Position numbers and translations under genes: made by a program. From Anderseniella sp. (GTDB lineage: Bacteria > Pseudomonadota > Alphaproteobacteria > Rhizobiales > Aestuariivirgaceae), in NCBI GenBank assembly GCA_036350935.1, contig JAZBOA010000095.1:1-49393 (forward strand): DNA of 49,393 bases, in the 5' to 3' direction. Of this stretch, positions 29,824 through 34,802 are shown in pieces. The notes beneath the pieces were generated by a model. The model saw only the letters and a list, made by a program, of their open reading frames with translations, did no database searches and was not told where the DNA came from. The number at the start of each line of letters is the position of its first letter. Positions within the stretch are counted from its first letter, which is position 1.

Positions 29824-30381
29824 ATGGCCGTGATCCAGGTACAGGGCGTTCACCACATCACGCTGAACGGCGCCGACCGGCAGACCTCCATCGACTTCTG
29901 GGAAGGTGTGCTCGGCATGCCGTTCGTGTTCGAGCAGCCGAACCTGGACGACCCGGAAACCAACCACCTCTATTTCGATCCCGGCGACGGACGGCTGATC
30001 ACCATCTTCACCCGCGAGGACCGCGAGCCGGACGCCCGGCCCAACCCCAACGGCATCGGCAACCTGCACCACATCGCCTTCATCGTGTCGCGCGCCACCT
30101 ACACGCAACTGGTGGACCGGCTGGAGGAAGCAGGTTTCGGCAATTCCGGCGAGGTGGACCGGGGCTTCATGGACTCGTTCTATTTCCGCGACCCGCTGGG
30201 CCAGCTGCTGGAACTGGCGTGCTACAAGTTCGACCCGCCCTTCGGCTTCACCCACGCCGACGTGCTGCACGAGGCCCACAAGCTCCGGGTCGAGGAAGGC
30301 GACTACAACATATCCGACACCCACATCGCCGACGCGCTGATGGTGCTGAGCCAGCGCCGGACGGGGACATTGAGTGAGTGA
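29824..30381 (+). CDS. VOC/glyoxalase-family protein
   Basis: GVHHITL, HLYF, LHHIAF, YFRDPLGQLLE. Confidence 0.88.
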   Translation: MAVIQVQGVHHITLNGADRQTSIDFWEGVLGMPFVFEQPNLDDPETNHLYFDPGDGRLITIFTREDREPDARPNPNGIGNLHHIAFIVSRATYTQLVDRLEEAGFGNSGEVDRGFMDSFYFRDPLGQLLELACYKFDPPFGFTHADVLHEAHKLRVEEGDYNISDTHIADALMVLSQRRTGTLSE

Positions 30382-30535
30382 ACGCGGCTCGGGTGATGCG
30401 CACGCTGCTTCAGATGGCAGCTCTGCGGTTGAAGCGGGTATGTTCTATGAATACCGGATATCTGCTACTCCCCCGTTGCAGACTATGGCTGAACCAGCAG
30501 ACTCGTTGGCCCCGGACCAGTTCTGCTGGGAAATA

Positions 30536-31378
30536 TTAGCCCAGCGCAGCCCGGACAACAGGGTTCATCTTGCCGGGTTCTGTCAGCGCGGCCATATGCC
30601 CGCCCCGCTCCAGTTCCTCAAAACGCCAATCTGTACAGGCCTGCTTCATCAGGTCGACGATCTCACTTATCGAGTTAACAGTATCACTTGCACTGATCAC
30701 AGTCGTATGCTTGGGGAGCTTGGCAATCCATTCTGACAAAGGGATGCTCTCGTTCATGACTGCGCCCCATTCATGGAAGTTCGGCTTCAGCGCTTGGGCA
30801 AACTTCACTCGCCGTTCTTGCGGCATGGCATCCCAGCTGCCGTCTCCTGTCCAGTAGTCGGCAAAAACGGCTGCAGCTGCCTCCCAATCCTCCTTGGCGC
30901 CATTTTCTTTGATGCAGTCTCTCAAGCTTTTCGCTTCAGCAAAAGCATCCAGCCGTTGGTCCAGTTCTAGCAAATAGAAAGGATTGGGTTCGATAAGTAC
31001 AAGCCGTTCAACCCGATCACCAAACAGTGCAGCCGCTTTCATCGCGACCGAGCCGCCGAATGAATGCCCAACTATAGAGAACCTGCGTTCCTGATCGGGC
31101 AGGATCGCGTGCAGCAGTTCTGCTTGATCCAGCAACGTCTGACCGCGCGACATCGTCCATGCATCAGTTCCTCCATAGCCATACAGGTTAACGGCAATCA
31201 GATGAAATTGATCAGAAAGGTCGTCCATCAAACGACGCCACTGGCTCGCGCCGGCGACGCTTGAGTGAAGTAGTACAACGGTTGGCCCGTCGCCTTTTTC
31301 AAGATAATCCACAATAGGTTCGCTCATCCAAAGCACCTGTCTGCCCAATATGAAATCTTCAAACGCTTGTTTGGACAC
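30536..31378 (-). CDS. Alpha/beta-fold hydrolase
   Basis: VVLLHS, GYG, GHSFGG nucleophile elbow, C-terminal GGHM; AT-richer codons. Confidence 0.88.
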   Translation of the reverse strand: MSKQAFEDFILGRQVLWMSEPIVDYLEKGDGPTVVLLHSSVAGASQWRRLMDDLSDQFHLIAVNLYGYGGTDAWTMSRGQTLLDQAELLHAILPDQERRFSIVGHSFGGSVAMKAAALFGDRVERLVLIEPNPFYLLELDQRLDAFAEAKSLRDCIKENGAKEDWEAAAAVFADYWTGDGSWDAMPQERRVKFAQALKPNFHEWGAVMNESIPLSEWIAKLPKHTTVISASDTVNSISEIVDLMKQACTDWRFEELERGGHMAALTEPGKMNPVVRAALG

Positions 31379-31608
31379 ACCCTCTCATTGATCAATGCTA
31401 TCAGACGCTGCCCAATGCGTCATCGTGAGCACCGCAAGGCCGTTCGTTCGACCAGAACGAAGGAAGTTCCTGATACCTTTCGGACGACCGAGACCACGCT
31501 GGAGGCAGATCGCTTGCGAGGGCATAACAGACCGTGTTCGAGGCAGTCGAAATCCGCCGGAGTAGACGCCAAAGGGAACTACGGGTCTTTGACACATTCT
31601 ATCGAAGT

Positions 31609-32889
31609 TCAGTGCAATCCTGCCACAGGCGGCGCTTTGGCAAGAACCGGCCGGCGCGAAAGCAGGGTTCGGCGCGCCTCGTCTGCTAGACCCAGCTTCA
31701 TCAGCGTATGAACATAGGTGAGTTCGATCAGGTCACGCTGGGCGCGGCTTCCGCCGAGACGATCAGCACTTGCGAGAACAGGTGTGAGTTCATCCAGTGC
31801 CGCTGACCAATTGCCTCGTGCAATTCCTTCGAAGGCTCTCGCAACCGGCCTGACGAGGTCTCCTGCAAACCCTTTTGCAGCCTCGGCAATTCGCGCCAGA
31901 CGTTCTCCTTCTCCCGCCATTGCGTGGCTTAGGGCGGCATGTATGTCGGCAAAGCTCTGCCCGGTTTCAGGGAAGTACTTTACGGCGTAATCGCTGATCG
32001 CTTTCCATCGCTGGGAATCTACGGTGAAGCCCGCAATGCTGGCGCGATGCAGGATCGCGACGGTGTCGGTGAGGATGTTTATAGGCAGTCCCTTGGATGC
32101 ATCAGGGCCGACCAAGCTGTCGAGAGTGGCCCACATTGTCTCTTCATCGCCTGCATGCAGCGCCCAAAGCGCAAGATGCCAGCTCAGGTGCCCGTGCAAG
32201 ACCGCGCGGTCGTCATAGTCCTGGAGCCATTCAGCCAGGTATTGCCGGCCCGCCGCCGTCTCGCCCGCCTCGTACTCAGCGTGAGCCTTGAAATGCGCTC
32301 CGTTGGCATTACGGGGGTTCAACGCCAGCGCCTTCTCCATCAGCCTTTGCGAAGCAGCAATCTGCCCGGTTTCGCAAAGTGAAATGGCGTGCATGGACAT
32401 CATCCACCAGTCCTCGCCATAGTGCGGCATCAGTGCATCGGTAAAGGCCAGCAATTCCGCCTCATGCGCAACTTCACCCGAAAAGCCTATCAACCCGAAC
32501 ACGCTGGTGCAGAGCTGCGCCACCATTGCATCTCGAGGATGTTCGAGCACGTGCGCTCTGACAGCCTGGCACGCCTTGGCAGCTTCGCCTGACAGCAGAA
32601 GGGCAATTGTTCCAATGTGATCACGCTCTCTCTGAGTGGCGGACGCCGCCAATGCTTTTGCTTGCTCGTTGGCAGCCTTTGCCTCTGCCACCCTGCCGGC
32701 AGACATCTGTGCGCGGGCGAGCCCTGCATGCCCCAGGGCAAAGCCGGGGTCCTCGGTTACCGACGCCTCAAACGCCTCAACAGCTCCGAAATTCGCACCA
32801 AGGAACAATCTTAAGCCGGTGTTGTAGTGGTCCAACGCTTCGCTTGAGTGTGTTGAAATGGCGTTCCCGTATCCGTCTTGAAGCGCCAT
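31609..32889 (-). CDS. TPR protein, TTC38-like
   Basis: HPRD, ANGAHFKAH, HGHLSWHLAL, FADIH, C-terminal GGSRAQRD. Confidence 0.8.
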   Translation of the reverse strand: MALQDGYGNAISTHSSEALDHYNTGLRLFLGANFGAVEAFEASVTEDPGFALGHAGLARAQMSAGRVAEAKAANEQAKALAASATQRERDHIGTIALLLSGEAAKACQAVRAHVLEHPRDAMVAQLCTSVFGLIGFSGEVAHEAELLAFTDALMPHYGEDWWMMSMHAISLCETGQIAASQRLMEKALALNPRNANGAHFKAHAEYEAGETAAGRQYLAEWLQDYDDRAVLHGHLSWHLALWALHAGDEETMWATLDSLVGPDASKGLPINILTDTVAILHRASIAGFTVDSQRWKAISDYAVKYFPETGQSFADIHAALSHAMAGEGERLARIAEAAKGFAGDLVRPVARAFEGIARGNWSAALDELTPVLASADRLGGSRAQRDLIELTYVHTLMKLGLADEARRTLLSRRPVLAKAPPVAGLH

Positions 32890-33095
32890 CAGCGTACCCC
32901 TGCCTCACATGATAAATTCAACAAAGATGCGATTGCAGTATGGATGAAATAGCTACTCGTTCAAAGGATGCCGGGCCCCTGTACACATCTCGTCTTCAAA
33001 TTGCACAAGCGTATGAGATGGCAAAAGTCCGGCCCGTTACCCGGTGCCAGCGGTTGAACGCAGGCTGCCAGGCACGAGCAAAACCTGGCGAATGA

Positions 33096-33602
33096 TCACC
33101 CCGACTGAACCGGCTTCTTCGCCCGCCCCCGCATGGCAGGCCGCCACACGCCCAGGATGACATTGGCCACCGTCAGCGCCAGCACCACGGCGAGCGCCTG
33201 CCACTCGCTGGCAATCGCTTCCTGCAACTGCGCCTGAGTCGCCGAGCCATCGGCCACCTTCACCGAAAACTCAGCCGCCGCATTTGCCTTGTGGCCGACG
33301 AAGCCAAGGGTGCCCTCGAACATCGAGATGCCCAGCAGCGCCTTCGCCCACGCCCAGCGCTGGTCAAGAAACGGCGCGTGCACCGCCATGGCAACGAGGC
33401 CGGACACCAGCGCCACCGCCAGCGACGGCACCAGCAGGTAGTCGCAGATGGCGCTGATCGAGGCGCGCAGGTCTGCGTATTGCTGCGGCGTGTCCTGCGG
33501 CCCGTAGACCAGCAGCACGCCATAGCCCGCCAGCGCCCCGATCATGCCGCAGGCAGCCAGGCTGTGCAGGATTTTCAGTGTCTTGCGGGTGCGCTGCGCC
33601 AA
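33096..33602 (-). CDS. DUF2269-like membrane protein
   Basis: LKILH, four hydrophobic segments, WAWAK, GVWRP; TTG start with GAGG RBS. Confidence 0.65.
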   Translation of the reverse strand: MAQRTRKTLKILHSLAACGMIGALAGYGVLLVYGPQDTPQQYADLRASISAICDYLLVPSLAVALVSGLVAMAVHAPFLDQRWAWAKALLGISMFEGTLGFVGHKANAAAEFSVKVADGSATQAQLQEAIASEWQALAVVLALTVANVILGVWRPAMRGRAKKPVQSG

Positions 33603-33620
33603 GTCCCAACCTCTCGCTCG

Positions 33621-34802
33621 TCACCCCTTGACGTTCAGACGCCGCGGAGTGTTGCACAAGGTTTCGACGCCGGTCTCGGTAATGAGGATCGGCTCGGTGA
33701 TCTCCAGCCCGCCGTCATCCAGCCACAGGGCCGGCATGAAGTGGAAGATCATGCCGGGCTTCAGCACGTTCTTGTCGCCACGGCGGAACGACATGGTGCG
33801 CTCGCCCCAGTCCGGCGGATAGCTGAGCCCGATGGAATAGCCGGTGCGCGAGTCCTTCGAAAACCCGTGCCTCTCCAGCGTGTCGTAGAAAGCGATGGCG
33901 ATATCCTCGCAGGTATTGCCGGGCTTCGCCTTCTCTAGGCCGGCGTCCACGGCTTCGAGCACCGCCTTCTCGGCGTCGAGATACTTCTGTGGCACCTTTC
34001 CGAGGAACAGCGTGCGCGACTGCGGGCAGTTGTAGCGCCGGTAGCAGCCGGCAATCTCGAAGAAGGTGCTCTCGCCTTGCCTGAACGGCCGGTCGTCCCA
34101 GGTCAGGTGAGGTGCGGTGGCGTCCATACCGGACGGCAGCATCGGCACGATGGCCGGATAGTCGCCCCAGTGCCCGTCCGCGCCTTCCACCGAGACCTTG
34201 TAGAGCTCGGCCACCAGCCGGTTTTTGGGCAGGCCCACCTCTGCCATGTCGACGATGGTGGCGTGCATGCGCTCGACGATCTTTGCCGCACGGCGCATGA
34301 ACTCGATCTCGTTGGCCGACTTGATGGCGCGCTGCCAGTTGACCAGGCCAACCGCGTCGCTGAACTTCGCCTGAGGCAGATGTTTTTTCAGGCTCTCCCA
34401 CGCCGCCGCCGTGAACCAGTAATTGTCCATCTCGACGCCGATGCGGGCCTTCTCCCAGCCGCGCTCCTTGATGATGCCGGACAGGTGGTCCATCGGGTGG
34501 CGCTCGGTGGACTGCACATAGTGGTCGGGGTAACCGATGATGTTGTCATGCGCCATGAAGGCGGTGCGATAGGCGCCATTGGCGTCCATGCCGCGCCCCC
34601 ACCAGACCGGCTCTCCCTCGAGGCCCACCAGCACCGCCTGGTGCACATAGAATGACCAGCCGTCATAGCCGGTCAGCCACCCCATGTTGGACGGGTCGGA
34701 CACGATGATCAGGTCAAGCCCCCGTTCGGCCATGGCGGCCCGGGTCTTGGCGATGCGCGCGGTGTACTCATCGCGCGAAAAATGCAATACGGCGTCAGTC
34801 AT
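33621..34802 (-). CDS. doeA: Ectoine hydrolase (M24 family)
   Basis: WLTGYDGWSFYVHQ, YVQSTERHPMD, GVEMDNYWF, YPPDWGERT. Confidence 0.88.
   Translation of the reverse strand: MTDAVLHFSRDEYTARIAKTRAAMAERGLDLIIVSDPSNMGWLTGYDGWSFYVHQAVLVGLEGEPVWWGRGMDANGAYRTAFMAHDNIIGYPDHYVQSTERHPMDHLSGIIKERGWEKARIGVEMDNYWFTAAAWESLKKHLPQAKFSDAVGLVNWQRAIKSANEIEFMRRAAKIVERMHATIVDMAEVGLPKNRLVAELYKVSVEGADGHWGDYPAIVPMLPSGMDATAPHLTWDDRPFRQGESTFFEIAGCYRRYNCPQSRTLFLGKVPQKYLDAEKAVLEAVDAGLEKAKPGNTCEDIAIAFYDTLERHGFSKDSRTGYSIGLSYPPDWGERTMSFRRGDKNVLKPGMIFHFMPALWLDDGGLEITEPILITETGVETLCNTPRRLNVKG

Follow-up and report, generated by a model that had tools for sequence, protein, structure and literature searches.

The inverted repeats that flank the fun gene in P2-like coliphages enable its site-specific exchange between phages and bacteria, according to the excerpted text of one review (PMC8987985, citing Nilsson, Karlsson and Haggard-Ljungquist 2004), and the pdif (xrs) modules of Acinetobacter plasmids carry XerC/XerD sites with a 6-base central region, exchange requiring matching centres, in the portion of the published account that was available (PMC11705084). 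The present analysis concerns a locus that invites comparison with both: an island of two genes, encoding an alpha/beta hydrolase and a TPR protein, on a 49,393-nt contig of Anderseniella sp. (JAZBOA010000095.1). This whole stretch is referred to as the window, all positions are given on it, and the genome to which it belongs is labelled G000. The reading we favour, to which we assign a probability of about 0.7, is that a foreign island of two layers occupies a hotspot of gene turnover, one layer being a hydrolase cassette of ~1 kb at worn palindromic sites and the other a TPR gene that was gained separately. Base composition sets the island apart, with a GC content of 0.53-0.59 in the five 500-bp windows from 30501 to 33000 against mostly 0.60-0.69 elsewhere, and with GC3 values of 0.57 (hydrolase) and 0.63 (TPR gene) against 0.80-0.89 in seven neighbouring genes, confirming the lower GC reported for the inserted stretch in a preliminary description of this locus.

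Two palindromic sites, at 30457 and 31459, lie on either side of the hydrolase gene (Table 1), in direct orientation and 1,002 bp apart, and the unit that they delimit would therefore move as a circle or by a double crossover. The upstream edge of this unit is set by a relative, G008, in which a hydrolase with 85% identity sits in a different island that lacks this TPR gene, with integrase and resolvase fragments nearby. Upstream of the hydrolase, 67 of 90 bases agree between the window and G008 as far as the inner arm of the site at 31459; beyond that site, agreement falls to chance (7/36 and 9/46 bases), and a gapped match there is not significant, 209 of 500 shuffles being as good. Four sites scoring above 13 bits surround the G008 hydrolase. 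More broadly, among the flanks of hydrolase relatives (at least 57% identity), 9 of 44 have site-like matches, versus none of 58 among those of TPR relatives. The TPR gene is absent from all 80 hydrolase loci compared, many of them short contigs, and a hydrolase occurs in one of 61 TPR loci, where it is only distantly related (26%). Together, these comparisons indicate that the hydrolase unit was likely inserted by site-specific recombination and that the TPR gene was probably gained separately. In the mechanism we propose, the enzyme that inserted the hydrolase was probably a small tyrosine recombinase acting in trans, whose gene lies elsewhere in the genome, strand exchange would take place in the asymmetric spacer of the sites, and repeated gain and loss would leave tandem sites at a period of 46 bp; the sites of the window itself are eroded and have probably lost their activity. 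In several loci with hydrolase relatives (L092, L088, L095, L096, L102), a site of the same family starts at or overlaps the hydrolase stop codon and has a degenerate arm on the gene side; these sites look as if the hydrolase was captured at a secondary site.

The palindromic sites were located with a profile that was built from a starting motif and iteratively refined on the Anderseniella genome. The family has a common architecture of two 10-bp arms around a 10-base spacer that is conserved and asymmetric. On 54 other G000 contigs, mostly small and of low GC, there are 81 such sites; they bound single genes, and neighbouring sites are 46 or 93 bp apart in 25 of 43 distances. A strict motif count over the whole genome reveals little spacer enrichment (7 at 10 bp, 15 at 11 bp, 2-6 otherwise), and on low-GC contigs arm spacings of 10-11 are enriched and a spacing of 6 is not. 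Two models were used to rank the 49,364 positions of the window, the first built from G000 only and the second, from which the window was excluded, from the flanks of hydrolase relatives and the sites beside recombinase homologues. The 30457 site ranks first and the 31459 site sixth under model 1; under model 2, which is out of sample, the 30457 and 30413 sites rank first and second. The intergenic DNA at 31459-31581 also matches family sites by blastn (E 0.005 for contig C137 and 0.066 for C5). Rows of genes separated by strong sites in the same orientation can be seen on contigs C80, C124, C553, C570, and C196 of G000, which are better examples of the arrangement than the window.

When the G000-only model is applied to positions 13-20 kb of phage P2, its two best matches flank fun(Z) in inverted orientation, with 25.4 and 9.4 bits. 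The preliminary description had suggested recombination at terminator- or REP-like palindromes; the sites beside the hydrolase instead belong to a family already noted around fun(Z) of phage P2, an assignment based on position around that gene in the P2 record. The likeness consists of the profile match and of a site at the edge of a swapped gene, at the upstream edge only. Unlike at fun(Z), the gene enclosed by the sites described here is metabolic and its chromosome non-enteric, and the sites are tandem at a 46-bp period and worn, with the inner pair in direct orientation.

A candidate enzyme is encoded in the same genome. Among 11 tyrosine-recombinase matches in G000, one small family sits between strong sites; it has five copies, of which one is intact (contig C155, 211 aa), one carries a stop codon, and three are cut by contig ends. 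The intact protein has the catalytic motifs of its class (R62, K90, H159, R162, H185, and Y194), and solved structures include only distant relatives of it. Sites adjoin four of the five copies in G000. With a site model trained without the recombinase-bearing contigs, a site was found upstream of 5 of 13 homologues in other genomes and downstream of 3 of 12, against a background of 12 in 2,033 windows. Homologues are present in 13 of the 41 genomes searched and in 298 plasmid records, and on the E. coli plasmid pC5103 four sites fall at gene boundaries, those of a recombinase homologue included. On two G000 contigs (C155:4770-5653 and C34:1710-2594) the recombinase gene forms a unit of its own, of ~0.88 kb, between two strong inverted sites, and the downstream site of this unit is fixed 38 bp past the stop codon in the copies of four genomes. 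A literature search, which for the most part did not extend to subscription journals, returned no paper naming an enzyme for these sites or describing a small recombinase acting on them.

The arrangement is comparable with pdif modules, as far as the available portion of their description goes, in having recombinase-free cargo between short two-arm sites and, as proposed here, a tyrosine recombinase acting in trans; it is unlike them in having 10 bases between the arms instead of 6 and an enzyme that falls far under the XerC and XerD cut-offs. With integron cassettes it shares single genes, a site close behind the stop codon, and, on several contigs, arrays whose sites all point the same way, and it differs from them in the lack of an attC-like fold, in its 30-bp dyads, and in a recombinase that scores 21 bits versus the 265-bit cut-off for integron integrases. 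We consider it an even bet that the hydrolase belongs, as a cassette, to a gene-capture system independent of integrons, in which a tyrosine recombinase reduced to its catalytic domain would move single metabolic genes at 30-bp dyads of the fun(Z) family in marine and sediment alphaproteobacteria.

The location of the island was analysed by DNA search of 41 genomes, followed by comparison of the matching regions, and by mapping the contigs of four public sequencing runs on the region. Similarity of the window to its closest relatives stops at the stop codon of the glyoxalase-family gene, which is the left anchor of the locus; the right anchor, the DUF2269-like gene, is 81-97% identical in the closest relatives. 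The gap from the glyoxalase gene to the DUF2269 or peptidase gene has a different content in every relative: it measures 11 bp in G008, where the flanks are 92% identical, and about 180 bp in G020, and in twelve other relatives the peptidase gene is reached only after 0.2 to 14.7 kb, which hold transporters, regulators, and enzymes. In one further case, a contig from run X2 joins 30381 to 33093 through 10 other letters, which is nearly the G008 allele. A contig from run X1 covers 32281-34232 with 26 differences, and the connection of the TPR gene with the host genes is therefore not an assembly error; run X1 may be related to the source sample. An X1 contig that ends at 30422, the outer-arm end of the left site, counts as no evidence, although the hydrolase is barely covered there, since only ~75% of the run was read and none of its contigs joins across. 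Two versions of the locus occur in G008 (contigs C10 and C27), 92% and 82% identical to the window and in one bin, one of them empty and the other with a 6.6-kb insert common to G018; G008 is possibly a mixed bin, given these two versions. In G018 (L039:3390-3583), a decayed second copy of the last 60 glyoxalase codons lies 5.6 kb from the intact gene and is followed by an AAA-ATPase pair, a layout pointing to an insertion that brought about a duplication at the 3' end of the glyoxalase gene.

The TPR protein is 69-72% identical to proteins of Rhodobacterales and Roseibium and 52-55% identical to the copy native to the genus, and a quick tree of 53 rows, from which L200-L217 and partial rows were left out, nests it among the Rhodobacterales with a support of 100. 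The gene was likely gained from Rhodobacterales; a search upstream of it yielded no site. There is no other copy of the TPR family in G000, and 12 relatives in the genus have a native copy elsewhere; the foreign gene may have replaced the native copy, or the native copy may be missing from the assembly.

The right junction of the island is accounted for by a pseudogene relic. A DNA profile built from 15 glycosylase orthologues aligns with nhmmer to the 60 bp at 33009-33068, covering model positions 585-645 of 669 with an E-value of 2.8e-5 in a 72-kb search, and this remnant, which is 83% identical to the intact G004 gene over 48 bp, reads on the minus strand as the AFNRWH motif of the glycosylase C-terminus. 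In 15 of the 23 relatives in the genus, the intact gene (PF03352, 62.7 bits) is a neighbour of the peptidase gene or the DUF2269 gene, and in G013 and G004 it lies within the gap itself; an intact gene was not found in G000. The relic goes unlisted in a default genome-wide nhmmer run. A more decayed relic, missed by the profile and seen by alignment to the window, is present in G020; the relic being common to both, loss of the glycosylase gene would therefore predate the split of the two lineages. The DNA of the G020 gap and that lying upstream of the TPR gene are not significantly similar (131 of 500 shuffles do as well). Pseudogene relics are generally known from turnover hotspots, and the same is seen here, where 60 bp of a host gene that was lost persist beside replaced accessory genes. 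The relic was itself considered as a site of the palindromic family and dropped, its ranks being 774 and 5,096 under the two models.

The preliminary description had offered a different account, in which a single module of 2,625 bp was inserted into a hairpin loop through a crossover within a 9-mer, GCGGTTGAA. Much of what it had listed is present in the DNA. The 9-mer occurs at 30425-30433 and at 33050-33058, the inverted 6-bp pair is real (TACCCG at 33038-33043 and CGGGTA at 30435-30440), the modelled empty site does fold into a 12-bp stem with one bulge, neither of the two gene products is a recombinase or transposase by Pfam matches, and long terminal inverted repeats are indeed lacking, the longest measuring 6-7 bp at four candidate pairs of ends. 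The fold of the modelled site is equalled by 9 of 300 shuffles as RNA and by 25 of 300 as DNA. The genome contains 112 exact copies of GCGGTTGAA, and the repeat on its own is ordinary because, when two 150-bp zones 2.6 kb apart were drawn at random 20,000 times, 3,370 pairs (17%) shared a 9-mer; a shared 9-mer together with a stem of at least 12 bp was found in 3 of the 20,000 pairs. The direct and inverted matches of the hairpin are non-independent, the right core being partly self-complementary, and across many such stretches of DNA coincidences like this one will occur.

What the hairpin account does not survive is comparison with the relatives. The empty alleles of G008 and run X2, which lack both genes, have no reconstituted hairpin, nor does the gap of any relative examined, and the model is refuted by these alleles. 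The sole joint across the island in the four runs is that of 30381 to 33093, away from the 9-mers, with none at 30433/33059, and what a natural empty allele lacks is 30382-33092, or 2,711 bp, instead of the proposed insert. A circle joint of 2,625 bp was not found in the contigs of the four runs, contigs being prone to drop rare forms. Folding of the two real junctions gives nothing above shuffles (z 0.0 to -1.3), and the 16-mer at the centre of the hairpin, which had been likened to a terminator or REP element, has 0 exact copies in the genome. The 9-mers likewise do not bracket foreign DNA. The left copy is the spacer plus the first arm base of the 30413-30442 dyad, a site that also includes CGGGTA, and the right copy is formed by the F-N-R codons of the glycosylase, the relic reaching 41 bp into the supposed cargo and covering TACCCG and most of the right hairpin arm; over 33050-33070, the right core and arm, 18 of 21 bases are the same as in the intact G004 gene, and under model 2 the right junction ranks 5,096th of 49,364, while its score, taken in the 9-mer's register, is -17.7. 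The right 9-mer is not a crossover point, because relic DNA lies on both sides of it and a crossover would leave foreign DNA on one. Hybrid junctions are thus missing at either end, with family arms on both sides of the left core and glycosylase-gene sequence on both sides of the right. The hairpin would then be a coincidence in which a family arm and spacer on the left meet glycosylase codons on the right, and, weighing the rarity of the joint pattern against the empty alleles, we regard the crossover account as very improbable. Delivery in trans at short palindromes, which it also put forward, is retained for the hydrolase alone and at other sites, and falls for the two-gene module.

Three further explanations were weighed against a two-layered island. 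Both genes could have arrived as one unit between the 30413 site and a secondary site in the relic, near 33008-33037, where a weak family-like match (3.0 bits, rank 15) stands at 33008, at the point where the relic alignment ends; the hydrolase and the TPR gene also both point to marine alphaproteobacterial donors. Glycosylase codons, however, suffice to explain the 33008 match, the missing 3' tip of the glycosylase gene has left no piece that could be found at the left end, the two genes are never linked elsewhere, and the TPR relatives are devoid of sites, so that joint arrival appears unlikely. We hold it similarly doubtful that the sites are passive debris from a donor and that the genes came by homologous or illegitimate recombination, with no site-specific event at the locus. 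In its favour, the sites of the window are eroded, and in most relatives turnover at the hotspot goes on in the absence of strong sites and without a recombinase, none being found among the 39 of 89 gap open reading frames scanned; against it, similarity to G008 stops inside a site, and family sites are frequent on low-GC contigs of G000, alongside the candidate enzyme.

The least probable explanation, to which we attach next to no weight, is an integron cassette placed by the integron integrase of the genome, or else the target duplication of an insertion sequence. The heptamer at 33053-33059 conforms to GTTRRRY and has a partner of the form RYYYAAC at 32916-32922, the assembly contains an integron integrase that scores above cut-off, and 9 bp is a common length of target duplications. 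The 144 bp from 32916 to 33059 nevertheless fold no better than shuffles (z 0.30 and 0.67) and end in the coding relic, the best match between ends is that of 6-7 bp given above, there is no transposase family, and scans for attC sites and terminators returned nothing specific. The integrase in question is full-length (G000:C546:778-1716, L246; 449.9 bits versus a TIGR02249 cut-off of 265), with a broken second copy on C308. Integrons are described as rare in this class, and the gene may be misbinned, lying on a 3.2-kb contig in an assembly with 4.9% contamination.

Several observations weigh against a hydrolase cassette in a two-layered island and enter into the probability given to it. Model 1 ranks the 30413 site only 95th, and model 2, under which it is second, was designed after the resemblance was noticed. 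The sites at 31505-31581 are weak, with ranks of 43-57, and a tandem-pair score did not pick out the arrays of the window. Downstream, similarity to G008 ends at the hydrolase stop codon, and no relative sets the downstream edge of the unit at 30457 or 30413. An allele with the TPR gene and without the hydrolase was not found. The G008 assembly, 86% complete, gives no recombinase match at E 1e-40, and a homologue on a Phaeobacter plasmid has no strong site beside it. We infer that the small recombinase acts on family sites from their co-location, which is the sole basis for this. Lastly, the full hairpin pattern, rare in the null as it is, has no causal account beyond chance.

Table 1. Features of the island and its surroundings, with the intact candidate recombinase gene; coordinates refer to the window unless a contig is named.
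Feature	Position	Strand	Basis or remark
Host glyoxalase-family gene, left anchor of the hotspot	29824..30381	+	Pfam PF00903, 56.8 bits; protein 81-98% identical in relatives
30-bp palindromic site of the P2 fun(Z) type, two 10-bp arms and a 10-bp spacer	30413..30442	+	
Second palindromic site, downstream of hydrolase, best of the window	30457..30486	-	Rank 1 under both models
Alpha/beta hydrolase gene, likely cassette cargo	30536..31330	-	Pfam PF12697/PF00561; 264 aa from ATG
Palindromic site, upstream edge of hydrolase unit	31459..31488	-	Rank 6
Two more worn sites, 31505-31535 (11-bp spacer) and 31552-31581	31505..31581	-	46/47-bp family period
Gene for foreign TPR protein, 426 aa, probably a separate gain	31609..32889	-	Pfam TPR_19
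Relic of 3' end of host methyladenine-glycosylase (tag-like) gene	33009..33068	-	nhmmer, 15 orthologues
Host gene for DUF2269-like membrane protein, right anchor	33096..33602	-	Pfam PF10027, 28.2 bits (cut-off 28)
Intact 211-aa recombinase gene	C155 4841-5473	-	Between family sites

Among the genes of the window, the hydrolase has an alternative start, a GTG upstream at 31378 that would give a protein of 280 aa, and the TPR protein is TTC38-like going by automatic cluster names (Atlas clusters 0.97-0.99). A separate hairpin of 6-7 bp, at 33066-33090, lies just past the stop codon of the DUF2269-like gene and folds no better than shuffles; it is a possible terminator-like element of the minus-strand operon.

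The hairpin target, as first described, is hence not real, and what remains at this locus is one worn example of a little-studied family of sites. The genome in which it is found, with ~81 sites and an intact enzyme gene on C155, provides better test substrates than the window itself. If the interpretation of the hydrolase as a cassette is true, the missing enzyme behind the 2004 observation on fun would be named, and that observation would be extended far beyond the enterobacteria. If the small recombinase acts on these sites, they would constitute a route of cassette exchange besides integrons and pdif modules, reaching from the defence slots of coliphages to the metabolic genes of sediment bacteria.

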